Shown here: piece by piece, positions 10,254 to 26,159 of the stretch
How the letters are laid out: the number at the start of each line of letters is the position of its first letter
Numbering within the stretch: position 1 is the stretch's first letter
Virus record (IMG/VR): IMGVR_UViG_3300032117_000008
DNA: 62,865 nucleotides
Source: an uncultured virus (IMG/VR IMGVR_UViG_3300032117_000008)
Taxonomy: Duplodnaviria > Heunggongvirae > Uroviricota > Caudoviricetes
Strand: one strand, 5' to 3'
Program-made: the position numbers and the translations under genes
The notes under the pieces: model-generated
Databases searched by the model: none
What the model saw: the letters and a program-made list of their open reading frames with translations, nothing else
What the model was told of the DNA's origin: nothing

Positions 10254-10346
10254 TCAATCGAAAAATGCTCTAAAGAAAATAAAAACAAAAATGACAATAG
10301 GCAACCAGAAGATATATAAAAGAGCCTTTACGTCATCCTTGTTCAT
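10254..10346 (-). CDS. 30-aa single-TM micro-protein (not in ORF track)
   Basis: MNKDDVKALLYIFWLPIVIFVFIFFRAFFD; stop codon lies inside the next -35 element. Confidence 0.5.
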   Translation of the reverse strand: MNKDDVKALLYIFWLPIVIFVFIFFRAFFD

Positions 10347-10455
10347 CCTTCTTACCTTTTCTAGTATAAGAGCCTTTTCCCTTTTTGCTCTTGACGATCC
10401 TTTGTTTATATAGGCCAGAAGCAAGAACTTTGGCCATAGGATTATGTTTATGCAT
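10333..10455 (-). CDS. arfA: ArfA-like alternative ribosome-rescue peptide, 40 aa (not in ORF track)
   Basis: MHKHNPMAKVLASGLYKQRIVKSKKGKGSYTRKGKKDEQG matches the ArfA core L(F/Y)xQRxxxxKKGKGSYxRK; GGAG SD. Confidence 0.75.
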   Translation of the reverse strand: MHKHNPMAKVLASGLYKQRIVKSKKGKGSYTRKGKKDEQG

Positions 10456-10483
10456 CGACCTACTCTCCGACCTACGTTGTTAC

Positions 10484-10651
10484 CTACAGAATATCAACCA
10501 CTCGACCGCTCTGATCAACGGCGCGAACACGATAATTAGGATACCTTGAAGACAATTGCTTCATTGCCTGGACAATATACATAGAATTGTTCAGCGTCGT
10601 CTGATAGGTTACCCAATTACCAGTACCTTGCTGCAGCTGAATATTGATCAT
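10484..10651 (-). CDS. 55-aa hypothetical protein (not in ORF track)
   Basis: MINIQLQQGTGNW...RVRAVDQSGRVVDIL; ATGA overlap with the upstream ORF. Confidence 0.55.
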   Translation of the reverse strand: MINIQLQQGTGNWVTYQTTLNNSMYIVQAMKQLSSRYPNYRVRAVDQSGRVVDIL

Positions 10652-10809
10652 GATTCATTTCCATGATGTTGAAGTTTATCCAAACATTCTTGTTTAGTCT
10701 TAAATGGTCCTACTATCATTACGATATGACCGTCAACAGACTCCAAACCAAACCACATACCCCAAGTACTTGGGCTGTTATCATCAAAATCTTGCCATGT
10801 TCTTATCAT
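10648..10809 (-). CDS. 53-aa hypothetical protein (not in ORF track)
   Basis: MIRTWQDFDD...GPFKTKQEC; AGGAG SD. Confidence 0.5.
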   Translation of the reverse strand: MIRTWQDFDDNSPSTWGMWFGLESVDGHIVMIVGPFKTKQECLDKLQHHGNES

Positions 10810-10836
10810 GACCTATCTCCTGACCTAGCTATAGAC

Positions 10837-11142
10837 CTACTGTTCGTTAACAGAAAGATGAGCGAAGCAATCAGAAACTCGCTCATCACCATCAAAATAG
10901 AACACCCAATCACCAAGCTCTTGTCGGTATTCCTTATTGATATACTCAAAACCACCGTAATACTGAAGAGTACGATCGTTGCTTATGTCAACCACAATTG
11001 TTGTACGATCTTCATCAACGTACAAACAATAACCAGCTCTTGAATCCAATCCAAGATCAGAAGCCTTGACATGATCAAGCTTTTGAACGTACCTCTCAAC
11101 CTTATCGTTTATTGCTTCGACGAAATCGTAACCAGCCAACAT
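10837..11142 (-). CDS. Early hypothetical protein
   Basis: Own promoter and AAGGA SD; LQYYGGFEY motif. Confidence 0.65.
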   Translation of the reverse strand: MLAGYDFVEAINDKVERYVQKLDHVKASDLGLDSRAGYCLYVDEDRTTIVVDISNDRTLQYYGGFEYINKEYRQELGDWVFYFDGDERVSDCFAHLSVNEQ

Positions 11143-11209
11143 GCATGTTTTCCTTTATTTCACAGACCACATATTGATTATACCGGAGTTATTTTTAAAA
11201 GTCAAGCGG

Positions 11210-11503
11210 CTAGCCGAAGAAATTCTCATATTCCTCGTCGGTCATGAGCTTTTCGCAATACATCCAGAGATCACCATCCTGCCAAAGGTTCCAACGATTA
11301 CCTTTGCTGTCGACAAAGTAAATAGAATTCGTCACCGAATCCCAGGATTCCCAATACCATTCCGCATCGGGTCCCTCTAGAAGAGTTTCAATATCCGAGG
11401 GATTATAACCTTCCCAGGACTTACCAGCGTTAACAATTTCAGCGAAATCGCGAGGGATATAGACGCCACGATTATCAGAGAGGATAAGTTCGATACCAGA
11501 CAT
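11210..11503 (-). CDS. Early acidic hypothetical protein
   Basis: Own promoter and SD; RGVYIP..F, EWYWESW, QDGDLW. Confidence 0.7.
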   Translation of the reverse strand: MSGIELILSDNRGVYIPRDFAEIVNAGKSWEGYNPSDIETLLEGPDAEWYWESWDSVTNSIYFVDSKGNRWNLWQDGDLWMYCEKLMTDEEYENFFG

Positions 11504-11565
11504 TTGTTTGCTCCTTCATTTCAACTTATAACTCATTATAGCGCTGATTTGTTTTAAAAACAAAT

Positions 11566-11844
11566 TCAAAATTTGCGATGGCGAACAATGTCCCATTTCA
11601 CAACAGACCAAGAACCATCATCACGCTCATCAACGATTACGTGAGCAACGTTGCCTTTCACAAGAGCCAAGCGCGTCTCGCCAAGAGGGCCGACATAAAT
11701 CTTATGTGGGAATACTACGTTGCGTCCGCCATGAGCAGGCGGAGAAAGAATCATCTCATCGGCAGCAGCGTAATCAAAAACTTTTCCACAAGTTTTCTCT
11801 ATGAAGTAGCCAAGAGTCTTTTCGACGGCGGGCGCATTAGCCAT
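11566..11844 (-). CDS. Early hypothetical protein
   Basis: First leftward gene, with promoter cassette and AAGGAG SD. Confidence 0.7.
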   Translation of the reverse strand: MANAPAVEKTLGYFIEKTCGKVFDYAAADEMILSPPAHGGRNVVFPHKIYVGPLGETRLALVKGNVAHVIVDERDDGSWSVVKWDIVRHRKF

Positions 11845-11912
11845 TTTAGTTCTCCTTCAACCAACCTTATAAATCATTATAGCGCGGAAAAGTTTTAAAA
11901 ACAAGCGCCCTA

Positions 11913-11967
11913 ATTGACGGAAAAAAAGAGTGAAATGTGGTATTTGACGTAAAAATTAAGTGAAATA
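11913..11967. repeat. Two tandem dyad sites TTGAC-N11-GTGAAAT between divergent promoters
   Basis: Copies at 11914-11936 and 11944-11966 (30-bp period); further copies at 15746-15768 and, inverted, 18015-18037. Confidence 0.75.
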
Positions 11968-12030
11968 CGCCGCTTGTTTTTAAAACCATATGAGGGTATT
12001 ATTGGTTATAAGGTTGATAAGGGAAACGAA

Positions 12031-12555
12031 ATGATCAACGTCGAAAAGGAACTCGCATTCCTAGATCTCGCCACCGACATTCTCAAATACACGCGCTCGG
12101 AAAGAGCCTTTATTCGCGAATGGATCAATAAGGGACACGAATTCAGCGGTAGAATTTGGGAAGAGCTCATCGAAAAGCTCGCTCGCACCAAGTTTAATGA
12201 CACAGCCCACATGGATTTCACTGATGGGACTGAGGCCAAGACTGCGAGCACTCGTCTTTATAAAAAGAAAGAAGGGTCTACCGGAATTGTTGGCCAGATA
12301 ACCAATGTGGCCGGCAAGACCGGATACATTCGCGTCGCTTGCTATAACAACCATAGCAAGAAGATTGACTTCTTTGTTCTTCCTCCAAACCACGACGTAA
12401 CTATTCGTTTCGCTAAAAGTCAAGGTAATAAAGGCTGCATACAGTTTTCTTATAGTAGAAAAGATGACACTTATTCGGCTAACCTTGAGAAATATCGCGT
12501 TAAGAACATCAAGGAATGTTGTAAGCAGTTTAGATATCTGAAGCTGGTCGCTTGA
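12031..12555 (+). CDS. Early protein, possible PD-(D/E)xK nuclease fold
   Basis: E in GRIWEEL and DFTDGTEAK motif; own promoter. Confidence 0.5.
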   Translation: MINVEKELAFLDLATDILKYTRSERAFIREWINKGHEFSGRIWEELIEKLARTKFNDTAHMDFTDGTEAKTASTRLYKKKEGSTGIVGQITNVAGKTGYIRVACYNNHSKKIDFFVLPPNHDVTIRFAKSQGNKGCIQFSYSRKDDTYSANLEKYRVKNIKECCKQFRYLKLVA

Positions 12556-12631
12556 TTTTTTGGGCGACTCCGTTGATTTTAAAACGTTTCCGGGGTATTA
12601 TTGATTATAAGATTGGATGAAAGGAAACGAA

Positions 12632-12853
12632 ATGGCTAATATGTCTTATTGTCGGTTCGAAAACACTCTTCGCGATCTCCAAGATTGCTTGAACGTTCTC
12701 GACGAGGCTTGTGAGGACGATAAGTCTTTGGAAGATTTCGAGAAATCTCTTGGTTCCGATTACGAACGTCGGGCTTTCAAGAGCCTCTTGACAGTCGCCG
12801 AGGAACTTTTGATGATTGCCGATCGAATGGCGAACGCTGAAAACGAGGCTTGA
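12632..12853 (+). CDS. Early acidic hypothetical protein
   Basis: MANMSYCRFENTLRDLQDC N-terminus recurrent in phages. Confidence 0.7.
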   Translation: MANMSYCRFENTLRDLQDCLNVLDEACEDDKSLEDFEKSLGSDYERRAFKSLLTVAEELLMIADRMANAENEA

Positions 12854-12909
12854 TTTTAAAACGTTCCCGCGCTATAATGAGTTATAACTGAATCAAACAG
12901 GAGTTCAAT

Positions 12910-13761
12910 ATGCCCCGTGGTGTTTACGACCGTTCCGCCGCTCGCGCTGCTCGCACCGAGAAGTTCACGGCCATCAAGGTCAATTATGATAATCAGCCGC
13001 ACGAAACCGACGAGCAGATCGATGCGCGCATTTCCGAGCGTTTCGAGATTCTCGATGTTCTGACCGAAGCTTGTACGGTCGGCAACGCTCGCGCTCTTAT
13101 CGTTTCCGGCCCTGCCGGTCTTGGCAAGAGCTTCACTGTCGAGAAACGTTTGAACGAGTGGGACCCCAACGAGATCAACCACACGATCGTCAAGGGCTAT
13201 GTTCGCGCCACCGGTCTCGTCAAGCTTCTGTATCAATATCGCGAAGAGGGTCAGGTCATTGTTTTTGATGATGCCGACTCTATCTTCTATGATGATATCT
13301 CTCTCAATCTTCTCAAGGCGGTTTGCGACACGACCGAGCGTCGTCGTGTTTCTTGGTTGAGTGAGGGCAAGCTTATCGACGACGAGAGCGCCGATCTTAT
13401 CCCGCGTTCTTTCAACTTCAACGGCACGATCATCTTCATCACGAATATGGACTTTGACGCGATGATCGATCGTGGCCATAAGCTGGCGCCTCATCTTCAG
13501 GCTCTGGTTTCTCGTTCGCACTACATTGATCTTTCTATGAAGACGCGCCGCGATTATCTTGTTCGCATCAAGCAGGTCATCAAGCAGGGTTTGCTCAACC
13601 ATTTGAATGGCGTTGAACGTCATGAGGTTATTGAGTTCATTAACTCCAATCACGAGCGTCTCCGTGAGTTGTCGCTGCGCGTTGCTCTGAAGATTGGTGC
13701 TCTTCGCAAGCAAGGCGCTAACTGGCAGAAGATGGCTAAGATTACCTGCTGCCGCAATTAA
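12910..13761 (+). CDS. P-loop AAA-type ATPase
   Basis: Walker A GPAGLGKS, Walker B VIVFDDAD, sensor IFITN, SR finger. Confidence 0.85.
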   Translation: MPRGVYDRSAARAARTEKFTAIKVNYDNQPHETDEQIDARISERFEILDVLTEACTVGNARALIVSGPAGLGKSFTVEKRLNEWDPNEINHTIVKGYVRATGLVKLLYQYREEGQVIVFDDADSIFYDDISLNLLKAVCDTTERRRVSWLSEGKLIDDESADLIPRSFNFNGTIIFITNMDFDAMIDRGHKLAPHLQALVSRSHYIDLSMKTRRDYLVRIKQVIKQGLLNHLNGVERHEVIEFINSNHERLRELSLRVALKIGALRKQGANWQKMAKITCCRN

Positions 13762-13841
13762 ATTCAATCCCCGGAAGCGGTTTGCTTTTAAAACGTTTCC
13801 GGGGTATTATTGGTTATAAGGTTGGTTGAAGGAGAACTGAA

Positions 13842-13934
13842 ATGAGTTGGGCAGAAGCGTTTGAACATGTAGGCATCGCTGTTTGTATGTGCGTTGCTTT
13901 CTTGGGGTGTTTTCTTTTCCTATCAAGGCTCTGA
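13842..13934 (+). CDS. 30-aa single-TM micro-protein (not in ORF track)
   Basis: MSWAEAFEHVGIAVCMCVAFLGCFLFLSRL directly after a promoter and AAGGAG SD. Confidence 0.6.
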   Translation: MSWAEAFEHVGIAVCMCVAFLGCFLFLSRL

Positions 13935-13936
13935 AT

Positions 13937-14347
13937 ATGACTACTCTCACTGTTCGTATTCGCAACTCTATGTATCAATACCGCGACAGGTATTCTTACT
14001 TCATTCCAGAGTTTGTGGAGCATACAGGAGATGTAGTTCCTAATCCCCCATGGGTCAAGGCTGATTCATTTTGTCTTTCGACTGGCGATCCGTCTTGGCC
14101 TTTTCGTATTTTGTCCAAAGACGATATCGTTTGCGGTTGGAAACATTCGGGCTCTTCTCTCAAGAAAGAGTCAAAGGTTCAATCATATATCGTCAAAGGT
14201 TCAAAGTCAAGCTACGTCGTTACGATTGACGAGAAGAATAAGGCGTCTTGTAATTGTACGGGATTCGCTTATCGTAAGAATTGTTCTCATGTTAAAGAAG
14301 TTCTTTCGCGTCGGGACGCCGAGACAGAGCGTCGGGACGCCAGTTGA
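13937..14347 (+). CDS. SWIM zinc-finger protein
   Basis: YVV...CNCTGFAYRKNCSHV. Confidence 0.75.
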   Translation: MTTLTVRIRNSMYQYRDRYSYFIPEFVEHTGDVVPNPPWVKADSFCLSTGDPSWPFRILSKDDIVCGWKHSGSSLKKESKVQSYIVKGSKSSYVVTIDEKNKASCNCTGFAYRKNCSHVKEVLSRRDAETERRDAS

Positions 14348-14611
14348 TTTTAAAACGCATCCGCGTTATAGTAGGTTATAAGTTAAAGGGAAATGAAATG
14401 AACAACGAACACACTCAAAAGATCTAATACAGAAAGGTCAGTAACTTGTCTAAGGATATTCGTAATCTCCGTAAAGAGGCCAAGGGTCTTATTAAGAAGA
14501 TGAAGAAGAACGGAATTGAATATGATGTGCCGGATATTTCGTTCATGGATGTCTTTGAACTACGAGAGTTTATTAATGCGCTCTTGTTGACTCTCAAAGG
14601 ATATACTGCTC

Positions 14612-14833
14612 TTGTATAACATAAGTCGTGTTCAATATGAACTTAATACAGTAATAAAGTTTAAATATAAACCATTACCGAGTACAATAAATTATATCAG
14701 CGGATCATCTAGGATTGTGTTTGTTCCAATTTTAAATAATATTGGCAATGAAATACGCGACAATATTCGCGGTGGTTTGAAAGATATAGATATTACTGCT
14801 GCCAAAACACTGATGATTAATGGTGAATTGTGA
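14612..14833 (+). CDS. MY-family small paralog 1
   Basis: TTG start MYNIS; C-terminal I..EIRDNI periodicity. Confidence 0.5.
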   Translation: MYNISRVQYELNTVIKFKYKPLPSTINYISGSSRIVFVPILNNIGNEIRDNIRGGLKDIDITAAKTLMINGEL

Positions 14834-15048
14834 TGTACGATGTTGAGAGAATCGACAGAGCTTCTTTTTATCTAAAATTTTTAGAAAAAATAGACCTTAA
14901 AAATATTAATGATGCTATCCAAGGTGATATTATTAATACGATTGTTATTGGGCTTAATCCGATTCTTAATGGGATATATGAACGAATAGGTGATGAAATA
15001 AAAGATCAGCTTATTGATATAATTGAAGACAAACTAGAAAGCCGATAA
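14830..15048 (+). CDS. MY-family small paralog 2
   Basis: MYDVE...IGDEIKDQLIDIIEDKL. Confidence 0.6.
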   Translation: MMYDVERIDRASFYLKFLEKIDLKNINDAIQGDIINTIVIGLNPILNGIYERIGDEIKDQLIDIIEDKLESR

Positions 15049-15049
15049 C

Positions 15050-15310
15050 ATGTATCAAATTGAATTAGATCATGACAATGACGATATTCTTTGTATCTTA
15101 CATAAGATGTATGGGGAACTATTTAAAGAATTATATTACCCATTAGATAACCAAGCTGAAGACCAATTCCTCGACCAACTGTTTGACCCAATACGCGACC
15201 AATTCCTTGACCCACTGGTTGGCCAACTGTTTGACCCAATACGCGACCGACTCATCGACCAACTTGTTGACCAACTGTTCGACCTACGGAAAGACCAACA
15301 TAATGGCTAG
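15050..15310 (+). CDS. MY-family small paralog 3 with 4-aa DQLx repeats
   Basis: 12-bp-period GACC(A/C)A repeats at 15161-15292. Confidence 0.6.
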   Translation: MYQIELDHDNDDILCILHKMYGELFKELYYPLDNQAEDQFLDQLFDPIRDQFLDPLVGQLFDPIRDRLIDQLVDQLFDLRKDQHNG

Positions 15311-15569
15311 AATAACCAAACGCTCATTGTTTACTAATAAGGTTAGAACACTTGATATTCCTCAGTACACTCAGGAAGAGTTTGATAATAGATATAATGC
15401 TTATTTGAAACAAGGTAAACTCATACAAGATGTATTCCCTGATCTATCTTTATCAGCAAGAGAGTTTATAATGACTGGTATTACTGATGAAGAATGGTAT
15501 GAATTTATGAGTGACGCTGATACTAAACAAGAGAAAGCGTCGGGACGGTTGAATGATTGGTATGAATAG
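15303..15569 (+). CDS. Conserved phage hypothetical protein
   Basis: LIQDVFPDLS..AREFIMTGITDEEW motif. Confidence 0.7.
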   Translation: MARITKRSLFTNKVRTLDIPQYTQEEFDNRYNAYLKQGKLIQDVFPDLSLSAREFIMTGITDEEWYEFMSDADTKQEKASGRLNDWYE

Positions 15570-15630
15570 TTGATTGTTGATGAATATTCGTGGGTTCTTT
15601 GTGAATCCTTTGGTGTTTCTTTGGAGTTCT

Positions 15631-15663
15631 TCGTAGTTGTTCGTAGTTGTTCGTAGTTGTTCG
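15631..15663 (+). repeat. 10-bp tandem repeat (TCGTAGTTGT)x3 in a non-coding T/G-skewed tract
   Basis: Read directly from the sequence. Confidence 0.9.
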
Positions 15664-15947
15664 AGTTTCTTTGGTGAATTTCTTCTAAGTTGGTAAACGT
15701 TTACTAATTGATTTAAATCCCGTTTAATAAATGTTTTCTTAGTATTTGACTGAGAAATGTCGTGAAATACTGGGGCTCGCTGTTGCTCTGCGGCTCTCTT
15801 GGTTGAACTTTAAATTTGCGCTCAAAAAGTTTTAAAAGCAAGCCCAAAGATTCTTAGTTGTCGCTCGATAATCTTTGAGCGCCTCCTTTTTTTTAAAACG
15901 GAAGCGCGCTAATATTAATTATAAGGTTGAAACGAGGGAAACGAAAA

Positions 15948-16208: not shown

Positions 16209-16268
16209 GGCTTGAAATTAAAAGCCAAACGGGTTATAGTAGGTTATAAGTTGATGAAACGGAGAAAA

Positions 16269-17425: not shown

Positions 17426-17962
17426 ATGACCGCTCTCAATAAGGCCGCGACTGCTCTCAAGCTCTATGCCGACGGCTTCAAGGATAAGGACTCGTTCAAC
17501 ACCGAGTTCATGAAGCTCTTTCCCGACTTCCCTCGCTCGACCGCTGGTTACTTCAGCGATGCGTTCCGTCATCACAATCCCGGCCAGTCTCAGCGCAAGG
17601 GTCGTGCTGCTTCTCCTCCGAAGGAACCGAAGGCTCCCAAGGAACCGAAGCCTGTCAAGGAGAAGGTTCTGAAGAAGAAGGCCGAGAAGGTCGTGAAGGA
17701 AAAGCCTTCGAAGGCTTCTGCGCCCGTGAAGAGCCTTGATGAGATCGCCAAGATCAAGGCCGCTAACCTTGCTCGCATGAAGGCTGTCTCTGAAAAGACC
17801 AAGAAGTACACGATGGTTGCTCGCGAAGAGGGCGCTGGTGTGCCGAACTTTGATCCCGAGAAGGCTCGGGCTGAGGTCGCTACATTCCTTGACACTGGGG
17901 ACATTGATTCCTTCGCTGCTCCGGAGAAGCTTTCTGCTGATCAGGTCAGAGCTCTGGTCTGA
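17426..17962 (+). CDS. Lys/Ala/Pro-rich early protein (possible nucleic-acid binding)
   Basis: PKEPKAPKEPKPVKEKV low-complexity core; strongly biased codons. Confidence 0.7.
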   Translation: MTALNKAATALKLYADGFKDKDSFNTEFMKLFPDFPRSTAGYFSDAFRHHNPGQSQRKGRAASPPKEPKAPKEPKPVKEKVLKKKAEKVVKEKPSKASAPVKSLDEIAKIKAANLARMKAVSEKTKKYTMVAREEGAGVPNFDPEKARAEVATFLDTGDIDSFAAPEKLSADQVRALV

Positions 17963-18091
17963 TCAACCAAACAACCATTATATATCGGGTGGGGTTTAAA
18001 AACAAGCCCCACCCATTTCACGTTTTGATTACGTCAAATACGATGAGAAAAGCGATCGGATTCTTGCGGCATCTTAAAAAACAGTGGCCTC

Positions 18092-18159
18092 TAAGTCATT
18101 GATATTATGTATGAAAATTTCAGGGCTTTTAGATTTCGAATTTCGCTAAGTCGTTGATT
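18092..18159 (-). promoter_or_regulatory. Two IHF-consensus sites
   Basis: TATCAA-TGAC-TTA (18104-18092) and AATCAA-CGAC-TTA (18159-18147) match WATCAANNNNTTR, 55 bp apart. Confidence 0.6.
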
Positions 18160-18242
18160 TTATTGGCATTCGTTCTAGACGCTTTGTTGAGAGTGAGAGA
18201 TGCTGGGTAACCGGGCACTCTGCGTCTCTCGGGCTGCATCTC

Positions 18243-18595
18243 TGTTCTAGAGCCTCCTTGCTTTTAAAATCGATCCGCGCTATGATTGGTTATAAGGTTG
18301 ATAGACGAGGCACGAGGCCTCTATAGGAGAACTGATATGACACATTCCGAGGCCGAATTCCAACGCTCCATGTTCGCGCTGTCGATGCTGCTGTTCGTTG
18401 GCGCACTGTTCCTTGTTGGCTTTCTTGGAGGTTGAGTCATGCGTAATTATGCTTTCTTTATCGCCATGATGGTGGCCGCGACCCTGATCATTCAGGCTGC
18501 TATGTTCTAGAGCCTCCTTGCTTTTAAAAGCAACTCGGGCTATAATGGGTTATAAGGTTGATAGACGAGGCACGAGGCCTCTATAGGAGAACTGA
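18243..18595 (+). repeat. Direct repeat of a 93-bp promoter/leader unit (260-bp period)
   Basis: 18243-18335 and 18503-18595 differ only in the spacer and -10 region. Confidence 0.9.
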
Positions 18596-18805
18596 AAATG
18601 CTGAAACCCAACGCCTCTAAGATCGCGCTGGCGATGCTGGCCATGATCGACGATCACCTCGCCCTCACCGCCGCCTTGGTGGTGGCCGCGACCCTGATCA
18701 TTGAGGCTGCTATATTCTTTATGTGAGGTATTGACATGATGGTAATGATCGGTTTTTTAATTTTCTTGCTTGGATTTTGTATTGGTAAGATGCTTTTACC
18801 CTGAT
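18337..18805 (+). CDS. Cluster of four hydrophobic micro-ORFs (18337-18435, 18439-18510, 18598-18726, 18737-18805)
   Basis: Each has an SD (AGGAG/GGAGG/GAGG) and one TM-like stretch. Confidence 0.55.
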
Positions 18806-18816
18806 GGAGATGTATT

Positions 18817-19014
18817 ATGATTGAAACGATTCTTATTGCCCTTGGTATCATGTTCATCCTGACGGCTACATTCCTGCTTGGGGTGTGGATTGGTGCATAC
18901 CGAGCCACTGATATAATCTATAACAGCCTGCAGAGCTCTGTGCACATTCTCGAAGAGAAGGCTGCGAAAGAAGCTGCTGCGACGTCAGCGGAGACCGAGG
19001 ATGAGCGACGATAA
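18817..19014 (+). CDS. Single-TM small protein
   Basis: N-terminal hydrophobic helix; GGAG SD. Confidence 0.6.
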   Translation: MIETILIALGIMFILTATFLLGVWIGAYRATDIIYNSLQSSVHILEEKAAKEAAATSAETEDERR

Positions 19015-20083: not shown

Positions 20084-20089
20084 GTAATC

Positions 20090-20287: not shown

Positions 20288-20477
20288 TACAACAGAAGTT
20301 CATGATCCGGCGGACCGAACATTCCAACAAGTAAACGATCAAGCTTGGTACCAAGTACAAAATCAGGTTTACTTTCATGTAAGCTATCAATTTTTGCGTC
20401 AGTCCAAAGATCAATTTGGGGATCATATACGTGACCAAATTGTTGATCAAATAAGAAATGAGTTAAAAAATGTATGA
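20280..20477 (+). CDS. MY-family small paralog 5
   Basis: MYDTT...IRDQIVDQIRNELK. Confidence 0.6.
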   Translation: MYDTTEVHDPADRTFQQVNDQAWYQVQNQVYFHVSYQFLRQSKDQFGDHIRDQIVDQIRNELKNV

Positions 20478-20647
20478 TACATTAGAAGTCGATATCAAAT
20501 ATCCTAACGCTCTTGTTATTGAAATTGATTCGCGATCATTATGTTGTTTATATGCATATGGCCTTATTGGCGCCTAGCAACGTTAAGGATAGATTGGTTA
20601 GACAGATTATTGACGAGCTTAAAACTAATATTTCATATTCACACTAA
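20470..20647 (+). pseudogene. Frameshifted MY-family paralog 6
   Basis: MYDTLEV frame stops at 20577; the +1 frame from about 20531 gives the family-like end VKDRLVRQIIDELK. Confidence 0.5.
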
Positions 20648-20708
20648 TGATTATACCGACTATTGAATAAAAGGTCAAGCGTTATTTTGAACTACATTGG
20701 AGATTATT

Positions 20709-21230
20709 ATGAACGACAGTAAGTTACAGCGTATTATTTTTATTGATATTGATGGTCCTATTATCAATACTCCTTGTTTTTATATCGATCCGATGTGTTC
20801 GATGAACCGTTCGGTTATGAATACGCAGGCTATCGGTTACGTCAATCGTCTTGCTCAAATCGTCGACGCCAAAATTGTTACAAACTCAAGTCACAATTCT
20901 TATTTGGTTGAGAATATTTTGACGCCCGAGAAACGCGATTTGAGGCAAGACCTGATCAAATGGGGTATGAAAGAGGATTTGTTTCATACTGTTTGGCGTA
21001 CAGGATTTCCTGATAACGCAAAATTCAATGCCAATTGGCATAGAAGGATGGATGCAATCGAGGATTGGCAAGAGGCTAATGGCGAGTGTGATTGGATTTG
21101 TTTCGATGATGATAAATTTACTTCTAGAAAGAATTTAATTGTCATCGATTTTGAAACTGGTATTGATCATGCTGCGTATAGGAAGGCGGGGAAATTTTGG
21201 GGTATTAGAAAAGAGCCCATCATTTATTGA
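20709..21230 (+). CDS. HAD-superfamily protein (Swiss Army Knife RNA-repair-like)
   Basis: IIFIDIDGP, IVTNSS, WICFDDD motifs. Confidence 0.75.
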   Translation: MNDSKLQRIIFIDIDGPIINTPCFYIDPMCSMNRSVMNTQAIGYVNRLAQIVDAKIVTNSSHNSYLVENILTPEKRDLRQDLIKWGMKEDLFHTVWRTGFPDNAKFNANWHRRMDAIEDWQEANGECDWICFDDDKFTSRKNLIVIDFETGIDHAAYRKAGKFWGIRKEPIIY

Positions 21231-21282
21231 GTTGACTTTTAAACGTTTTGGGTTTATGATTGGTTATAAGATGGAGAGTTAG

Positions 21283-21501
21283 ATGAGCAGTCTTGTTGGT
21301 GATATCAGAGCGGTAAATTATTGGGATTGGTATGAACCGATTTGGGACGGGGTTACGCTCCCAAGACCAAAGAAAGAACTAGTGGTTAGTAGTTACGAGT
21401 TGCAAATTCGTAAGGTTGTCGTCTCGGATCAAGGGTTGCCAACGTTGTCTGATTGGATGCCTATCCAAGTAGTGGACATTTATCCTGAGGGAGCGAAATG
21501 A
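21283..21501 (+). CDS. Early hypothetical protein
   Basis: Own promoter and GGAG SD. Confidence 0.6.
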   Translation: MSSLVGDIRAVNYWDWYEPIWDGVTLPRPKKELVVSSYELQIRKVVVSDQGLPTLSDWMPIQVVDIYPEGAK

Positions 21502-21698
21502 AGCATCGTAAGTTGGAAGATTATAACCCTAATGGTCACGTCGTTTCCGTTTACGATAAATCAAGATTGATTGAGCGTAAGGAATATCCTACTTACGGTA
21601 AAGCGATGCATGGCATTCTAGCTTTAGAAGCTCAGTACCCGCATTTTAAGGTTGAATACCGAGATCAACGAGTTTTTAGGACCGACACTTATGAATGA
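21498..21698 (+). CDS. Hypothetical protein
   Basis: ATGA coupling, GGAG SD. Confidence 0.6.
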   Translation: MKHRKLEDYNPNGHVVSVYDKSRLIERKEYPTYGKAMHGILALEAQYPHFKVEYRDQRVFRTDTYE

Positions 21699-21948
21699 GC
21701 AAGGTAAAAATCTGATTGAAAACTTTAGATGGGAGGCCAAAGCGAAAAGGGTCGGTCCCACTAATATTAGTTATTCGTTCACTCCGGAGGAACTCGAAAA
21801 ATACTCTGAGATGATCATCAAAGAGTGTGTCGATATTATGTTGACGGAATTGAAGAATACTTCTATGCTTTTGTCTAATCCAGGCAAAAGTTCTGCAATT
21901 TGGGAAGCTAGAAATAAAATTAGCAAACGGTTTGGAGTTGATTTCTGA
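21691..21948 (+). CDS. Hypothetical protein
   Basis: LEKYSEMIIKEC...KRFGV pattern; overlapping starts and stops. Confidence 0.6.
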   Translation: MNEQGKNLIENFRWEAKAKRVGPTNISYSFTPEELEKYSEMIIKECVDIMLTELKNTSMLLSNPGKSSAIWEARNKISKRFGVDF

Positions 21949-22268
21949 TGCATAGAATCATTCAAAACGAAGTCAAATGTCTTAAGTGCGAAGAGATTAT
22001 TTGGTCAGCACATCGTCACGACTACAAGAGTTGTAAGTGTGGTTCTATCGCTGTCGATGGAGGAACAGACTATCTAAGACGCGTCGGAGATTTTTCAAAC
22101 GTCGAAGAGCGGTCAATGTCGATGGACGAGGAGGCGATTTATAAATGTATAGAGGCTGTTAAATGGGGTAAGAAATCTGGTCGTAACGAATACGGTATCT
22201 CTCTAGCTGTGATCAGAGCATTGAGGGATACGGGTTATCTTAACATGGAAAAATTCAAAGGAGAATAA
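21948..22268 (+). CDS. Zn-ribbon protein
   Basis: CLKC..I.S.HRHDY..CKCG.IAVDGG.DYLRR. Confidence 0.75.
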   Translation: MHRIIQNEVKCLKCEEIIWSAHRHDYKSCKCGSIAVDGGTDYLRRVGDFSNVEERSMSMDEEAIYKCIEAVKWGKKSGRNEYGISLAVIRALRDTGYLNMEKFKGE

Positions 22269-22269
22269 T

Positions 22270-22506
22270 ATGAGCGCAGAAATTATTGATTTTGTTTCTA
22301 AGAACGTTCCGGTTGATTTTGGGTTTGTCAAAGGCGAAAAGGTTAAGAAGCCCAAGACGCCTCAAGATTATCAAAATCTCTTGAAGAAGTTTTTGACGAC
22401 AGAGGATTATGAAGAAGTTCTGCTTTGTATTATGGATGATGAATATTACGATTCTGCGGACCCTGAAATTCAAAAAATTGTAGACGCTTACGATTCCTTT
22501 TGGTGA
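22270..22506 (+). CDS. Acidic hypothetical protein
   Basis: AAGGAG SD. Confidence 0.6.
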   Translation: MSAEIIDFVSKNVPVDFGFVKGEKVKKPKTPQDYQNLLKKFLTTEDYEEVLLCIMDDEYYDSADPEIQKIVDAYDSFW

Positions 22507-22533
22507 TATATAAATATTATCAAAACAGGAGTT
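22492..22533 (+). promoter_or_regulatory. Late promoter TATAAATA in the loop of an SD-sequestering hairpin
   Basis: TATAAATA at 22509-22516; ATTCCT/TTTGGTGATA pair with TATTATCAAA/AGGAGT. Confidence 0.7.
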
Positions 22534-22536
22534 AAA

Positions 22537-22923
22537 ATGGACTGTGTAGCAATAGGTGACGATATAGCGATAGGAGTTGCTGCTCCTCTTACTTGTGAAG
22601 TTAGAGCAGCAACAAACTTGACTAGTTCGCGTATTATTCAATATGCAAACGGTACGTATCACGCCTATTGTGTTTTGTCTGCGGGAACTTTTGATCCAAA
22701 CAGTAGTAAGCTATCGACAAATTTGATGAGTATTAGAAACGAATCAAATTGTAAGTTTTACGTTTGGATTTTACCTGTTAATTCAACAGCTTCTAAAGTT
22801 GTTAGTTCTGTGGCCGTAAAACATTCTGATTACACAGTATCTTTTACTCCAGGTATTGATGGTATAACGCCTTCTAGCTATAATGATCTAGCTGGCGCCA
22901 TACTCAATAAAACTAACAACTAA
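22537..22923 (+). CDS. Degenerate SGNH-hydrolase-like protein
   Basis: IGDDIAIG, LSAGTFD and DGITP occupy the GDS, GxND and DxxH blocks. Confidence 0.5.
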   Translation: MDCVAIGDDIAIGVAAPLTCEVRAATNLTSSRIIQYANGTYHAYCVLSAGTFDPNSSKLSTNLMSIRNESNCKFYVWILPVNSTASKVVSSVAVKHSDYTVSFTPGIDGITPSSYNDLAGAILNKTNN

Positions 22924-23018
22924 ATAAAAAGTATTCTTCTTTACAGTTAGGGCGATCTGTGTTGAAGTATTTGTTTTTGTTAAAATCGCTAAACTCAATA
23001 TATTGAAAGGAAATTAAA

Positions 23019-23405
23019 ATGGCTCCATTTGTTGTTGTGGCCCTTGTGGCTGCAGGTTTGTTTGGTACTGGTACGGTTGTTCGTGAGCAGCAGCCTGTAA
23101 TTGGTACGGTTCTTCAGGGCGCTGGTGTTGGTACTCTCGTTGGTGGCGGTATTGGCGCTGCTGTGGGCGTTCCTTCCGCTCTTGCCACTGGTTTTGGTGC
23201 TACCACTACCGCTGGTCTTGTTACTGGCACTGCTATCGTCGGTGCTGGTGCCGGCGCTGCAGGCGGTTATGTTCTTCAGAATCGCGCTCCTGCGGTTATT
23301 GCTCCGTTCGAGAATAGCCTTCAGAACGATGTTAATGTTCTCAAGCAGGACGTTGCTTCTCTTAAGGCAAAGCGCCATAAGAAGAAGGTTGTTGCTTCTA
23401 AGTAA
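23019..23405 (+). CDS. Gly-zipper membrane protein with coiled-coil/basic tail
   Basis: GxxxG repeats; upstream CTAAATA; downstream terminator. Confidence 0.65.
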   Translation: MAPFVVVALVAAGLFGTGTVVREQQPVIGTVLQGAGVGTLVGGGIGAAVGVPSALATGFGATTTAGLVTGTAIVGAGAGAAGGYVLQNRAPAVIAPFENSLQNDVNVLKQDVASLKAKRHKKKVVASK

Positions 23406-23412
23406 CATATTA

Positions 23413-23440
23413 GAGGGAGCTTCGGCTCCCTTTTTTATTT
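23413..23440 (+). terminator. Rho-independent terminator
   Basis: GGGAGC-TTCG-GCTCCC-TTTTTT. Confidence 0.9.
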
Positions 23441-23532
23441 CATAATTGCGCTTGCTTTTAAAACAAATCCGTATTATAATAAGTTATAAATTGGTTGAGC
23501 GGTTCGGCCAATAAAGAATGAGGATCTATATT

Positions 23533-24495
23533 ATGGCACACGAAATTGAATTTGTTGACGGTAAAGCTCAGATGGCCTATGTTGGTCAGGTTCCCTGGCA
23601 CGGTCTTGGTACACGAGTTCCGGCCGATCTCACTCCCAATCAGATGCTTGATGCGGCTGGTCTTAATTGGACCGTGCGTAAGGTTGAGGCTACTGCTTAC
23701 GATTTCGAGACCGATCGTCTTTATACTCTTGATCGGGCGGCTTTGATCCGTAACAATGATGGTAAGCTTCTCGATGTCGTTTCGAACGATTGGAATCCCG
23801 TTCAGAATGAGGAAGCCTTTGAGTTCTTTAACGAATTCGTGGCGGCTGGTGATATGGAAATGCATACCGCTGGTTCTCTGAAGGATGGTCAGATCGTTTG
23901 GGGTCTTGCTAAGATCAAGGAATCTTTCGAACTCTTTAAGGGCGATCGTATTGATTCTTATCTTCTTTTCTCTAACTTTCATAAGTACGGATTTTCAACG
24001 GACGTCCGATTCACCCCTATTCGTGTTGTTTGTAACAACACTCTTTCGCTTTCGCTTTCTTCGAAGGTTGAGCGAATGGTTAAGATTTCTCACCGTAAGG
24101 TTTTCGATCCTTCGAACGTCAAGGATATGCTCGGTATTGCTACCGACAAGCTTGTAAAGTATAAGGATATGGCTTCTTTCCTTGGTTCTAAGAAGGCCAA
24201 GAACGAAGATATCGTTGAATATTTCAAGCGTATTTTCCCTGTTTCGGGTTCTGGTGATAAGAAGAAGGAAGTTTCTAAAAATGCGCAGACTGCTCTCGGT
24301 ATTCTTCATACTCAACCTGGCGCTGAATATGCCGAAGGGACTTGGTGGCAGCCTTTTAACGCTGTTACGTATTTGACCGATCATCTCGCGGGTCGTTCGC
24401 CCGATTCGCGTTTGGCTTCGGCTTGGTACGGTCAGAATAAGAACCTCAAGACTAAGGCTCTTGAACTTGCTGTTGAAATGGCCGAAGCGGCTTGA
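23533..24495 (+). CDS. DUF932 (TIGR03299-like) protein
   Basis: PWHGLG, AGLNWTV, PVQNEEAF, TAGSL..G, TPIRVVCNNTL. Confidence 0.85.
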   Translation: MAHEIEFVDGKAQMAYVGQVPWHGLGTRVPADLTPNQMLDAAGLNWTVRKVEATAYDFETDRLYTLDRAALIRNNDGKLLDVVSNDWNPVQNEEAFEFFNEFVAAGDMEMHTAGSLKDGQIVWGLAKIKESFELFKGDRIDSYLLFSNFHKYGFSTDVRFTPIRVVCNNTLSLSLSSKVERMVKISHRKVFDPSNVKDMLGIATDKLVKYKDMASFLGSKKAKNEDIVEYFKRIFPVSGSGDKKKEVSKNAQTALGILHTQPGAEYAEGTWWQPFNAVTYLTDHLAGRSPDSRLASAWYGQNKNLKTKALELAVEMAEAA

Positions 24496-24543
24496 TTTTA
24501 AAAAGGATCTAAGCTATAATACAATATAACTTGGAGAACAGTA

Positions 24544-25668
24544 ATGGCTCGTCGTCAACCACTTATCGCTAATCGCAAACAGAAAGCTCCTCGCGTTTCT
24601 CGTTCGGAGCAGTACATCGTCAACTATAAGTATCTCGGCGACGAGCCCCTTTTCGATAAGGTTCCGTCAATTTCGGAATATTCTCAGGCTTTGACTTGGT
24701 ACAATTATATGTGTACCAACGACGAAGCTCGCGGTTATCTTAAAGATTACCTTAAGAGCAAGTCGCGAACCGAGGAATTGAAGAAGCTTAATCGCGTATC
24801 TGATACTTGGGTTTCAACGACCGCTTGTTGGGTCGCGCGTATGATCACTCGTGGTTCTAAGATGCCAGAAACAGCGGGAACTTTCCTTGAAACTAAGATC
24901 AAGGAGATGCTTTCTCGCGCGAAGGTTGAAGAACCTGTTGTTGAAACCGAAGTCAAGAAGCCTACGGTTAAAGAGCGTATTCAGGACAAAGCTTCTGACA
25001 TTATCGGCGATATCGAGGAAATGATTGATTCTGACGTTAAGTTTTCGCTTTACGATTGGATGAAGTCGAAATATATTCCCGCTGTTTACGCTTCTATGAT
25101 TGTAGAGAAGTATACACCATGGCTCGACGAGTTGCTTGAGGCTCTCGAAGGCAACGATAATCAACTTAAAGAGGCTTATCGTTATCTTTCTAAGAAACAA
25201 CTCAAGGAACGAGTTTTGTTCTTTAACTCGTTGATCGAGGACGCCGAACGTTATGGCGCTGTGACTAAAAAGACGCGTAAACCACGTAAGCCTCGCGCTG
25301 TTTCGGTCGAGAAGAAGCTCAAGAACCTTAAGTATCAAAAGGAAGATAAAGAGTTCAAGATCGCTTCGGTCAATCCAGAAAAGATTATTGGCGCTCAAGA
25401 ACTTTGGACGTTCAACACCAAATATAAGACGTTGACCGTACTAAGAGCTCTTGATCGCGGTGGTCTACAAATCAAGGGTACGAGCGTTTTGGGGTACGAT
25501 GAAAACAACTCCGTAACCAAACGTACTGGTCGCAAGCCAGAAGAATACATTAAGAAGGTTTTGGAAGGTGGTAAGATCGTATTGCGTAAGCTTATGGATG
25601 AGTTGAAGAAAGAAGCTTCTTTGGCTTATCGTATAAACGAAAATACTATTCTGCTAAAAATCACTTGA
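24544..25668 (+). CDS. Conserved T4-like hypothetical protein
   Basis: ALTWYNY, SVNPEKIIGAQELWTFNTK.K.L, RINENTILL. Confidence 0.75.
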   Translation: MARRQPLIANRKQKAPRVSRSEQYIVNYKYLGDEPLFDKVPSISEYSQALTWYNYMCTNDEARGYLKDYLKSKSRTEELKKLNRVSDTWVSTTACWVARMITRGSKMPETAGTFLETKIKEMLSRAKVEEPVVETEVKKPTVKERIQDKASDIIGDIEEMIDSDVKFSLYDWMKSKYIPAVYASMIVEKYTPWLDELLEALEGNDNQLKEAYRYLSKKQLKERVLFFNSLIEDAERYGAVTKKTRKPRKPRAVSVEKKLKNLKYQKEDKEFKIASVNPEKIIGAQELWTFNTKYKTLTVLRALDRGGLQIKGTSVLGYDENNSVTKRTGRKPEEYIKKVLEGGKIVLRKLMDELKKEASLAYRINENTILLKIT

Positions 25669-25698
25669 CCTTTTCAGCAGAATAGGGTAATATAAATA
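25665..25698 (+). promoter_or_regulatory. Overlapping sigma70 and late promoters of the RNA operon
   Basis: TTGACC-N17-TAATAT plus TATAAATA at 25691-25698. Confidence 0.7.
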
Positions 25699-25699
25699 T

Positions 25700-25976
25700 G
25701 TTGCTTGGTCGTTGAGGCGTAAAGAATAGATGCTTTGGACGTGGGTGCGAATCCCACCTGGTCCACCACAGATACACCGGGACCGACTCGAAAGAGACTC
25801 CTTAGAAGATGAGGGATTAGGTGTATCTTTGATGGGCCAGAATAGGTTCGACAAGGTATGTCAAGGTTACGAGTAGACTAAGTAAAAACGTTAAATGCAA
25901 ACGATAACAATGCATCTGGTTTCGCCCTAGCGGCGTAACATGAGTCCGGCAGGAACTTGGAAACAGAATCCTGCCA
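25700..25976 (+). ncRNA. ssrA: Circularly permuted two-piece tmRNA
   Basis: T-arm and CTGGTCC-ACCA end at 25768; GGGCCAG-AATAGGTTCGAC starts at 25834; G3:U70 pair; tag ORF 25897-25938 = ANDNNASGFALAA*; terminal GGCAGGA...TCCTGCC stem. Confidence 0.93.
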
Positions 25977-25985
25977 TCTTTTCAT

Positions 25986-26062
25986 GGCTCCTTAGCTCAG
26001 CTGGACAGAGCACCGGATTTCTACTCCGGGCGTCGAGGGTTCGAATCCTTCAGGGGCCGCCA
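25986..26062 (+). tRNA. tRNA-Arg(UCU)
   Basis: Complete cloverleaf, anticodon TCT at 26020-26022, A20, encoded CCA. Confidence 0.92.
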
Positions 26063-26066
26063 TTTT

Positions 26067-26159
26067 GCTTCTGTAGTGTAACGGTCAGCACCCGGTCCTT
26101 ATAAGTCCGTATCGCCAGATTAGCGAGGAGTCTTGGTTCGAATCCAAGCAGAAGCACCA
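26067..26159 (+). tRNA. tRNA with UAU anticodon (Ile) and a long variable arm
   Basis: GCTTCTG/CAGAAGC acceptor, loop CT-TAT-AA, V-arm TCGC-cagatta-GCGA, TTCGAAT T-loop, ACCA. Confidence 0.85.

Follow-up and report, generated by a model that had tools for sequence, protein, structure and literature searches.

A short ArfA-like gene, a two-piece tmRNA and tRNAs reading AUA and AGA at separate loci of a freshwater T4-like phage

Phage T4 encodes tRNAs that read AGA (Arg) and AUA (Ile). In bacteria, the rescue factor ArfA of E. coli (YhdL; PF03889; PDB 5H5U, 5MDV, 5U4I and 5MGP) is a protein of 72 amino acids, and the basic tail of ArfA, KGKGSYxRK, sits in the empty mRNA channel in solved structures. 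Two published accounts (PMC10107115, PMC4131195) describe E. coli ArfA as the product of a non-stop mRNA that RNase III has truncated. ArfA is also known from phages: g10 of Citromicrobium phage RXM is annotated as ArfA (PMC8953757), and gp30 of Pelagibacter phage HTVC027P is an ArfA with high expression early and late in infection, according to an excerpt of its description (PMC12753301). A two-piece tmRNA (ssrA) is known from Methylophilales phage Melnitz and the pelagimyophages (Buchholz et al. 2022, PMC9004378). In Melnitz this permuted, alpha-type tmRNA lies directly upstream of the gene for the late coactivator gp33, followed by gp59 and gp32, and tRNA-Arg(UCU) is reported from another part of the genome. 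Excerpts of the same description give the frequency of tmRNA of any type as 2.3% of all phage genomes. To these known elements the phage described here adds a short ArfA form with its own stop codon, a late-promoter motif at the tmRNA, a match between tRNAs and codon use, and a family of tRNA(UAU) with an extra arm.

The window, the whole stretch of 62,865 nucleotides that was analyzed, derives from lake water and belongs to a freshwater T4-like myophage whose kin are Melnitz and the pelagimyophages. No RNA sequencing run was found to contain this phage. Its relevant features are as follows.

10333-10455, minus strand: short arfA-like gene encoding 40 amino acids, MHKHNPMAKVLASGLYKQRIVKSKKGKGSYTRKGKKDEQG, with its own TGA stop (translation, Pfam, PDB alignment)
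11177-11205, minus strand: sigma-70-like promoter motif TTGACT-17-TATAAT, 11/12 matches (consensus scan)
25665-25698, plus strand: overlapping promoter motifs, sigma-70 type TTGACC-17-TAATAT (25665-25693) and T4-type late TATAAATA (25691-25698) (consensus scan)
25700-25977, plus strand: permuted (two-piece type) tmRNA precursor (ARAGORN, Rfam)
25730-25768, plus strand: tmRNA acceptor piece with T-arm, 3' acceptor strand and encoded CCA (ARAGORN 3' tRNA domain)
25834-25859, plus strand: start of the tmRNA coding piece, with 5' acceptor strand GGGCCAG and D-like region (ARAGORN 5' tRNA domain)
25897-25938, plus strand: tag frame with GCA resume codon, ANDNNASGFALAA and TAA stop (ARAGORN)
25946-25985, plus strand: terminal hairpin CCGGCAGGA...TCCTGCC, then a U-rich run (sequence, fold)
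25986-26062, plus strand: tRNA-Arg(UCU), reading AGA (Rfam 62.1 bits, ARAGORN)
26067-26159, plus strand: tRNA(UAU), reading AUA, 93 nt (Rfam 55.1 bits, ARAGORN)
26172-26408, plus strand: gp33-like late-transcription coactivator (Pfam Trans_coact 60.7 bits, PHROG 254, Melnitz gene map)

An earlier note on this DNA had proposed that the ArfA-like peptide, the tmRNA and the two tRNAs form one translation-rescue suite. All four elements are present, and parts of both known routes of non-stop rescue are indeed encoded by one phage. We favor, at a probability of roughly 0.6, a reading in which mini-ArfA, tmRNA and tRNAs are three independent accessory modules that would support translation during infection.

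The 40-amino acid frame is preceded by a GGAG ribosome-binding site 8-9 nt 5' of the gene and scores 43.3 bits (E 2.5e-11) against Pfam PF03889, for which the curated cut-off is 25.5 bits, over profile positions 10-43 of 44. It aligns without gaps to residues 12-49 of E. coli ArfA in structures such as 5H5U and 5MDV (E ~1e-6), with the phage tail KKGKGSYTRKGKK paired with E. coli KKGKGSYMRKGKH. The likeness lies in the KKGKGSYxRKGK tail and in the preceding L..LF.QR.V segment; some 11 residues at the N terminus and the hydrophobic extension at the C terminus are absent from the phage protein. Its N-terminal segment, aligned to E. coli residues 12-31, is shorter and divergent and has a lysine at the position of A18, but L, L/Y(F) and R are retained, with counterparts of E. 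coli L20, L24, F25 and R28, a segment that we take to be the RF2-contact region of the published structures. In an alignment of 40 representatives of the ArfA family, which comprises 54 representative proteins of mostly 35-60 amino acids, G26 and R32 never vary, and N5, A8, V21, K25, G28, Y30 and K33 are nearly invariant. Relatives of the phage peptide are encoded by at least 319 viral contigs, and by its sequence the peptide is a member of the ArfA family.

We considered and rejected regulation of the E. coli type, through a truncated non-stop mRNA, for the phage gene: the reading frame stops at TGA after 40 codons, a scan of the gene revealed no terminator-like site, and a hairpin at its 3' end is not significant in a fold test (z = -1.6). 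The stop codon of phage arfA falls approximately where active E. coli ArfA is truncated. Given this ordinary stop codon, mini-ArfA should be made with or without working trans-translation.

Among the 80 best bacterial loci, 33 encode a short ArfA form of 34-44 amino acids with its own stop, and every one of the 33 is from Pelagibacteraceae (SAR11). These loci include contigs of 1.2-1.36 Mb; the gene is flanked by housekeeping genes, and the encoded proteins (...NPMAKDLFTKKYKPKIVKPKKGKGSFKRKK) share 61-66% identity with the phage peptide across 29-35 residues. The SAR11 arfA is a cellular gene, whereas that of the window is a phage gene; the short form of the phage is the one native to Pelagibacteraceae. 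In Table 1 of a published survey, arfA is listed for 0 of 2,376 alphaproteobacterial genomes (PMC11633108). As in the window, short ArfA-family reading frames occur in phages of Alphaproteobacteria, namely RXM (g10), HTVC027P (gp30), Brevundimonas phages and Ochrobactrum phage vB_OspM_OC. RXM and HTVC027P have no permuted tmRNA, unlike the window phage, and the word tmRNA has 0 occurrences in PMC8953757 and in PMC12753301.

Long gammaproteobacterial ArfAs have GRGxIKDNALKAVVTS... in common, from which the N-terminal half of the phage peptide differs. This divergence, the missing N-terminal residues and the restriction of strong conservation to the tail motif would suit a peptide whose tail occupies the mRNA channel of free 30S or 70S ribosomes, biasing initiation or blocking host rescue with no recruitment of RF2. 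We regard such a take-over as very doubtful, because the short form of Pelagibacteraceae is chromosomal and its housekeeping context fits a normal cellular rescue role, and because the counterparts of the four presumed RF2-contact residues are retained.

The tmRNA identified in the earlier note is supported by ARAGORN, which labels it "Permuted", and by two Rfam models, RF04321 tmRNA_permuted (95.9 bits, gathering threshold 47) and RF01849 alpha_tmRNA (79.8 bits, gathering threshold 50). The 3' half is encoded upstream of the 5' half, and the precursor has a fold z score of -3.8, with the intervening loop placed inside the acceptor stem in the predicted fold. G3:U70 is retained in 12/12 ARAGORN-called phage tmRNAs, and acceptor pairs 4-7 of the window tmRNA are altered on both sides relative to those of related phages, a compensatory change. 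Of 11 tags in ARAGORN-called relatives, 10 begin with (G)ANDN and finish with ALAA, the exception being L092 (ATYASNDNVPYSAMKVAA); the middle of the tag varies, and most relatives keep its frame, its resume and stop codons and the ALAA end. SAR11 tmRNAs score 189-244 bits on the alpha model compared with 79.8 for the phage RNA, which may lack some of the usual helices, and SAR11 tags are short (ANDELALAA and similar), unlike that of the window phage. In blastn searches the phage tmRNA matched other phage tmRNAs and none of 33 SAR11 tmRNA loci at E < 1e-3, which points to an old phage lineage and not to recent capture.

The order of tmRNA and gp33 is that of Melnitz, as are the ANDN...ALAA type of tag and the TATAAATA motif before the RNA. 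The tRNA-Arg(UCU) genes of Melnitz are not placed beside the tmRNA in the excerpted description (PMC9004378); in the window, by contrast, tRNA-Arg(UCU) adjoins the tmRNA and, with tRNA(UAU), fills the gap to gp33, and no glutamine riboswitch scores above the Rfam threshold. Melnitz has no ArfA, unlike the window phage, and the term has 0 occurrences in the Melnitz paper (PMC9004378). The listed gp33 reading frame starts at 26133 and overlaps a tRNA, so that an ATG at 26172 or 26181 is the likelier start. The hairpin at 25946-25985 may act as a weak terminator or mark a site of processing ahead of the tRNAs.

The RNA cluster lies under overlapping sigma-70-type and late-type motifs, as had been noted before. 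Of 14 related loci, 12 have TATAAATA or NATAAATA a few bases 5' of the tmRNA, and the remaining two have ACTAAATA; a TTGACN -35 element is present in 6/14. Window-wide, TATAAATA is not enriched (6 matches, 8.9 expected). The conservation of its position at related loci places the tmRNA behind a conserved motif of the late-promoter type. The arfA gene is the last in a run of small reading frames from 11142 to 10333 that follows the sigma-70-like motif at 11177-11205, and no ATAAATA late motif occurs on either strand between 9000 and 12000. Based on this consensus match, early expression of the run is predicted.

In agreement with the earlier note, no SmpB match was found among the 83 window reading frames scanned; six-frame searches of four contigs of the window phage or a near-identical phage (G001, G002, G003 and G041) and of one relative (G058) also gave 0/5. 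The phage tmRNA would thus need host SmpB and, by analogy with E. coli, the phage ArfA would need host RF2. SAR11 genomes have both ArfA and tmRNA, and if the host has its own copies, as SAR11 does, it is not evident what additional ones would bring.

In another reading, the two genes would switch pathways instead of adding capacity: the divergent, reduced phage tmRNA would chiefly compete with that of the host for SmpB, or redirect tagging to amino acid recycling, with an always-on ArfA providing tag-free release that spares phage proteins. A tmRNA cut down to its tRNA-like domain strongly inhibits tmRNA, perhaps through SmpB titration, as stated in part of the report of Hudson et al. (2014, PMC4131195), and selective tagging for amino acid recycling was proposed by Buchholz et al. 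in the excerpted text (PMC9004378). The distance of the phage tmRNA from the alpha consensus and the stop codon of arfA, through which the gene would escape the tmRNA-dependent repression known in E. coli, also agree with such a switch. We nonetheless consider it unlikely, given that the tag frame, resume codon, stop and ALAA end are kept in most relatives and that most relatives have a tmRNA without ArfA; conserved tag ends around a variable middle argue for a translated tag and against a mere decoy RNA.

Both tRNA genes are present where the earlier note had placed them; the extra arm of the second is a new observation. tRNA(UAU) has a canonical anticodon loop (CUUAUAA), A73 and an encoded CCA, and its variable region of approximately 22 nt folds into a stem of 4 bp capped by a 7-nt loop, CAGAUUA. 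This length ruled out the short (4-5 nt) variable loop of a class I bacterial tRNA-Ile(UAU). AUA codons of the window fall on Ile at 51-62% of positions in relatives, like ATT/ATC and unlike Leu codons; AUA would accordingly be read as Ile in the window phage, and charging of tRNA(UAU) with Ile is predicted. The molecule belongs to a widespread phage family with a conserved extra arm and CAGAUUA loop, for which we found no published description.

ATA reaches 27.1 per 1000 codons in the late genes, where it makes up 37% of Ile codons, and AGA accounts for 77% of Arg codons there; the corresponding values in the 12-25.7 kb region are 8.4 per 1000 and 18%. Both tRNAs fit late-gene codon use. Like T4, the window phage supplies tRNAs for two codons frequent in late genes, and it differs from T4 in the long extra arm of the AUA tRNA. 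The earlier note had linked the four loci to stalling of AT-rich late genes in a GC-rich host; the late genes are indeed rich in AUA and AGA, but a GC-rich host finds no support, and the hosts of relatives are low-GC streamlined bacteria.

We infer the activities, host partners and benefit of the favored reading, three independent modules, from the identity and conservation of the parts, the promoter motifs, the codon match and the distribution of the genes. Mini-ArfA would be transcribed early; with its basic tail, KGKGSYxRK, it would sense that the mRNA channel is empty in a ribosome stalled at a 3' end, and its N-terminal part would recruit host RF2, leading to peptide release. The two-piece tmRNA, driven mainly from the late promoter and charged with alanine via G3:U70, would, together with the SmpB of the host, rescue ribosomes on non-stop mRNA and append the ...ALAA degradation tag. 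tRNA-Arg(UCU) and tRNA-Ile(UAU), co-transcribed with the tmRNA, would serve the AGA and AUA codons that dominate late genes. Together, the modules would allow ribosomes to go on cycling once host shut-off and mRNA decay have set in, similar to other phage auxiliary genes that replace labile host functions.

More tentatively, large phages of streamlined aquatic bacteria might rewire the rescue hierarchy of the host, with ArfA repressed by tmRNA, into two parallel, constitutive rescue routes. In this possible extension, an early stop-terminated mini-ArfA and a late tmRNA with rare-codon tRNAs would handle truncated mRNA from host shut-off or RNA-cutting defenses, and a wider remodeling of termination and rescue by the phage would also involve the extra-armed tRNA-Ile(UAU) and a mini RF2-domain protein.

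The arrangement of the loci does not bear out the single suite of the earlier note. The arfA gene is 15 kb from the RNA cluster, on the opposite strand and behind its own sigma-70-like promoter motif, which differs in type from that of the cluster; in other phages ArfA and tmRNA are 7-80 kb apart. Co-occurrence across related phages is also uneven, with tmRNA in 25 of 26 relatives, tRNA-Arg beside it in 23, tRNA(UAU) in 8, all in the closest subclade, and ArfA in 4. Components unlinked across phages had been named as evidence against the suite, and the counts for tRNA(UAU) and ArfA show them to be largely unlinked. Among relatives' contigs of at least 45 kb, 7/9 (48-147 kb) have tmRNA without ArfA; missing from most tmRNA-bearing relatives, ArfA is dispensable for this type of phage. 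Melnitz and DLP_6 likewise have tmRNA only; the reverse, ArfA and no permuted tmRNA, holds for Cr30, OC, RXM, HTVC027P, CRP-212 and Mwe-JY26.

A co-evolved four-locus suite that keeps ribosomes running despite cleavage of mRNAs or tRNAs by host toxins or defense nucleases, and despite stalling on AT-rich late genes in a GC-rich host, would nevertheless agree with several observations. Several phage lineages that are unrelated to one another carry both rescue routes (4/10 ArfA-bearing isolate phages and 4/39 ArfA-bearing viral contigs have a permuted tmRNA, compared with the published 2.3% of all phage genomes for tmRNA of any type), 5 of 80 ArfA loci have 5-23 tRNAs within 10 kb, an ArfA-like frame lies between RNA ligase genes in Caulobacter phage Cr30, and the window reading frame at 20697-21230 has an RNA-repair-type HAD domain. 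However, genome size and host clade both confound this enrichment, and neither the GC-rich host nor the link to defense finds support; in view of these points and of the arrangement above, we judge the suite quite unlikely, and a role against toxins or defenses is pure conjecture. Joint carriage of ArfA and tmRNA is recurrent but unlinked, and the four loci are separately inherited helper genes of kinds known from other phages, not one linked system.

Patchy distribution of ArfA among relatives could also indicate passenger genes that came from hosts and confer little if any selective advantage, and the genes lie in or beside a variable region, with three assemblies of the window phage ending at approximately 11.5-12.5 kb of the window. 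This is highly improbable for a tmRNA found in nearly all relatives, with compensatory changes and an old phage ancestry, and for an arfA frame that is intact and identical in four assemblies (the window and three other viral contigs) and 78% identical in one relative. G041, G002 and G003 are 100% identical to the window across the common stretch.

Elsewhere in its genome, the window phage encodes a mini RF2-domain protein with TGQ instead of GGQ.

We propose that the translation-related genes of this phage most likely work as three independent helper modules. The first would be an early, always-on mini-ArfA using host RF2; the second a mainly late tmRNA using host SmpB, AlaRS, and proteases; and the third a pair of tRNAs predicted to serve late-gene codons. 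The earlier note had combined the same parts into one translation-rescue suite, and its inventory holds, in that the ArfA-like peptide, the tmRNA, the tRNAs with UCU and UAU anticodons, and the overlapping promoter motifs before the RNAs are all present as described. Its observation that smpB is missing likewise stands, as neither a scan of 83 window ORFs nor a six-frame search of 5 related records found SmpB. The features discussed here are as follows.

60-3309 (-), gp43 DNA polymerase gene in two ORFs, interrupted by a 222-aa HNH homing endonuclease gene (1348-2016)
10333-10455 (-), arfA-like ORF of 40 residues (translation and Pfam ArfA)
11205-11177, promoter-like site TTGACT-17-TATAAT ahead of arfA (consensus scan)
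25661-26159 (+), tmRNA/tRNA cluster upstream of gp33
27.9-28.3 kb, gp32 gene (DNA match)

The notion of a single suite is not supported by a co-occurrence check across relatives. Only 4 of 26 related records contain ArfA, namely G041, a contig of the same phage, and G060-G062, a clade that is ~55% identical, and the distance between arfA and the tmRNA gene ranges from 7 to 80 kb with varying orientations. Seven contigs from relatives (48-147 kb) cover the corresponding region and carry a tmRNA without ArfA, with the proviso that viral contigs are fragments and a gene absent from a contig may still exist in the phage. A permuted tmRNA is found in 4/39 viral contigs of 12 kb or more that encode ArfA and in four of the ten isolate phages with a Pfam ArfA match (RsoM2USA, whose ArfA match lies below the Pfam cut-off, Bajun, L02, and Kikimora); Melnitz and DLP_6 have the tmRNA only. 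Compared with a published base rate of 2.3% of phage genomes carrying any tmRNA (PMC9004378), the pairing of ArfA and tmRNA appears enriched, in counts that ignore phylogeny and for which genome size and host clade are confounders. The idea that ArfA and tmRNA are either/or alternatives among the relatives was abandoned because Rfam detects a tmRNA in three loci (L106-L108) where ARAGORN had missed it. Published work mentions tmRNA and ArfA separately in phages; our literature search found no paper treating one phage with both. Should both be active, phages would offer a natural supply of minimal rescue factors that are always on, and ribosome rescue capacity would be shown to limit phage yield.

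Protein-family scans identify the window phage as a T4-like myophage with genes for gp43 DNA polymerase, the gp33 late coactivator, the gp59 helicase loader, and gp32, together with a long baseplate run. The best isolate matches of gp32 are Methylophilales phage Melnitz (53.7% identity), Pelagibacter phage Mosig, and cyanomyophages, and DNA-level comparison with isolate phages revealed none close to the window. The window DNA was found in 20 sequencing runs, all of them DNA metagenomes from lake water or freshwater, and the same search gave no RNA run containing it. Contigs G041, G002, and G003 are 100% identical to it across the shared parts. Nothing points to the GC-rich host that the earlier note had assumed. 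Three independent viral contigs of the same phage (G002, G003, and G004) all stop at window positions ~11.5-12.5 kb, and the 12-26 kb stretch has a higher GC content (37-49% compared with ~35%) and a different codon use, which suggests a mosaic, variable early region. Within this stretch, 17960-19000 is ~1 kb that lacks a long open frame on the + strand amid densely coding DNA and has no Rfam family above threshold. A 177-aa ORF at 20697-21230 (+) matches the HAD domain found in RNA-repair proteins of the "Swiss Army Knife" type (Pfam HAD_SAK_2, 41.1 bits; cut-off 27.5). Neither an RNA ligase nor a kinase turned up in the window ORFs that were scanned.

The arfA-like ORF scores 43.3 bits against Pfam ArfA (threshold 25.5), and its peptide gives an ungapped alignment with residues 12-49 of E. 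coli ArfA as taken from ribosome structures. It has a GGAG ribosome-binding site, and a search of window positions 9-12 kb found no late motif. E. coli ArfA is repressed by tmRNA by means of a non-stop-mRNA device (PMC10107115). The phage gene differs in lacking this device, given that it has an ordinary TGA stop, that neither sequence inspection nor a terminator scan found a terminator-like site inside the gene or before its stop codon, and that the fold of its 3' region is not significant. A small hydrophobic ORF at 10254-10346 (-), MNKDDVKALLYIFWLPIVIFVFIFFRAFFD, starts from an internal ATG and overlaps the final arfA codons in a different frame; it could encode a membrane peptide or have arisen by chance.

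A word-indexed protein search with the 40-aa peptide returned only the peptide itself; an exhaustive profile search yielded 54 representative proteins at E ≤ 0.001, most of 35-60 residues, and alignment of 40 of these gives the consensus M...RNP.AK.L....F..R.VK.KKGKGSY.RK. ArfA relatives are encoded in at least 319 viral contigs. Of the ten isolate phages, eight score above the Pfam cut-off, and several already carry an ArfA annotation. ArfA is mentioned for Citromicrobium phage RXM (PMC8953757), and high expression, both early and late, is reported for gp30 (ArfA) of pelagiphage HTVC027P (PMC12753301). In Caulobacter phage Cr30, an ArfA-like frame without annotation (record positions 11142-11240) is flanked by genes with GMP reductase and RNA ligase annotations.

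Among bacterial genomes, the best 80 loci comprise two ArfA forms. Pelagibacteraceae account for 33 of the 80 with a form of 34-44 residues that has its own stop codon and is 61-66% identical to the phage peptide, and gammaproteobacterial loci encode forms of 50-108 residues with an extra N-terminal GRGxIKDNALKAVVTS segment. The short SAR11 arfA has housekeeping genes on both sides in contigs that reach 1.36 Mb and is therefore a cellular gene. The chromosomal Pelagibacteraceae gene lies between response-regulator-like and pfkB kinase genes (L141, L173, and 31 other loci). Table 1 of a recent survey gives arfA in 0 of 2,376 alphaproteobacterial genomes (PMC11633108); the short ArfA of many Pelagibacteraceae genomes thus widens the known range of ArfA into the Alphaproteobacteria.

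ARAGORN and two Rfam models agree on a permuted tmRNA with the tag ANDNNASGFALAA, followed by a hairpin, tRNA-Arg(UCU), and a tRNA with anticodon UAU. In the 26 related viral loci gathered through phrog_11903, the gene immediately upstream of the tmRNA, a permuted tmRNA was called in 19 by ARAGORN and in 6 more by Rfam, and the lone locus without a match is 7.3 kb long. The tRNA-Arg(UCU) follows the tmRNA in 23/26 of these loci and tRNA(UAU) is present in 8/26, which are the eight closest. G3:U70 is kept in all 12 ARAGORN-called tmRNA sequences examined, and acceptor pairs 4-7 of the window tmRNA are altered on both strands. The tags of 10 of 11 relatives start with (G)ANDN and end with ALAA around a variable middle, the exception being locus L092 (ATYASNDNVPYSAMKVAA). 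The tmRNA is, judging from such sequence comparisons, old in this phage group and presumably functional. As in the window, Melnitz has the order tmRNA, gp33, gp59, gp32, and a published study describes its two-piece tmRNA and tRNA-Arg(UCU) genes (PMC9004378). Melnitz is also reported to have a glutamine riboswitch, which has no counterpart in the window at the Rfam threshold.

In 12 of 14 loci, whose flanks are otherwise unrelated, the conserved 5' stem is preceded at a distance of a few bases by either TATAAATA or NATAAATA, and a TTGACN -35 element is found in six of the 14. Of the 22 ATAAATA sites in the window, 12 are followed within 60 nt by the start of a gene or RNA on the same strand, which supports this motif as the putative late promoter of the phage. 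The 33 Pelagibacterales tmRNA loci encode unlike tags (e.g., ANDELALAA) and gave no match in a blastn search with the window tmRNA, yet other phage tmRNAs did match, which indicates that the phage tmRNA was not recently captured from SAR11. Host assignment through the tmRNA was rejected on the same missing matches and on the shortness and dissimilarity of the Pelagibacterales tags.

Both tRNAs fit late-gene codon demand, because they share the late promoter of the tmRNA and late genes are rich in the codons concerned: ATA reaches 27.1 per 1000 codons (37% of Ile) and AGA makes up 77% of Arg codons, compared with 8.4 per 1000 and 18% in the 12-25.7 kb region. The tRNA(UAU) at 26067-26159 has a canonical anticodon loop (CUUAUAA), A73, an encoded CCA, and an extra arm of 4 bp with the loop CAGAUUA. 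Two relatives share this design, as does Stenotrophomonas phage DLP_6, whose copy bears the annotation tRNA-Ile-TAT. The related tRNA(UAU) genes are as follows.

L092:10446-10539
L094:3435-3526
L127:1501-1592

A scan of viral contigs with a pattern that left the extra arm unconstrained gave at least 120 matches; a tRNA(UAU) 85 nt or longer is encoded at 62 of the 80 loci listed, and among the 59 unique sequences that these yield, 57 carry GAU in the extra arm. In a second, GAU-constrained sample, the loop is exactly CAGAUUA in 52/63, and stems and tRNA bodies are highly variable. The extra-armed tRNA(UAU) thus forms a large phage family of 88-96 nt with a 7-nt extra-arm loop, for which our literature search found no paper. 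The extra arm recalls class II tRNAs, and leucine charging has a precedent in the nematode nev-tRNAs (PMC3333845); this is disfavored as the window's AUA codons fall at Ile positions in alignments, like its ATT and ATC codons, and not at Leu positions, so that the likely role of tRNA(UAU) is to read AUA as Ile. Its GAU would allow the extra arm to be viewed as an alternative anticodon arm, which is unlikely given the non-canonical A33 and U37 of the loop. A widespread extra-armed tRNA-Ile(UAU) poses the question of how a U34 isoleucine tRNA is charged or modified.

Outside the window, ~24 kb beyond its left end, contig G002 encodes a 78-residue RF2-domain-like protein (L492:1030-1266). It matches the RF-1 domain at 25.6 bits, below the 35-bit Pfam cut-off, and phrog_20323 with an E value of 1.6e-8. 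When it is aligned with RF2 domain 3, TGQ stands where release factors have the catalytic GGQ. To our knowledge, RF2 domain 3 is not involved in the ArfA-RF2 interface. An HNH homing endonuclease gene adjoins the gene for this protein. Agrobacterium and Rhizobium phages have similar genes that carry an "RF-1 domain" annotation and the motif SGL, which the homologue in Agrobacterium phage OLIVR5 has at the GGQ position.
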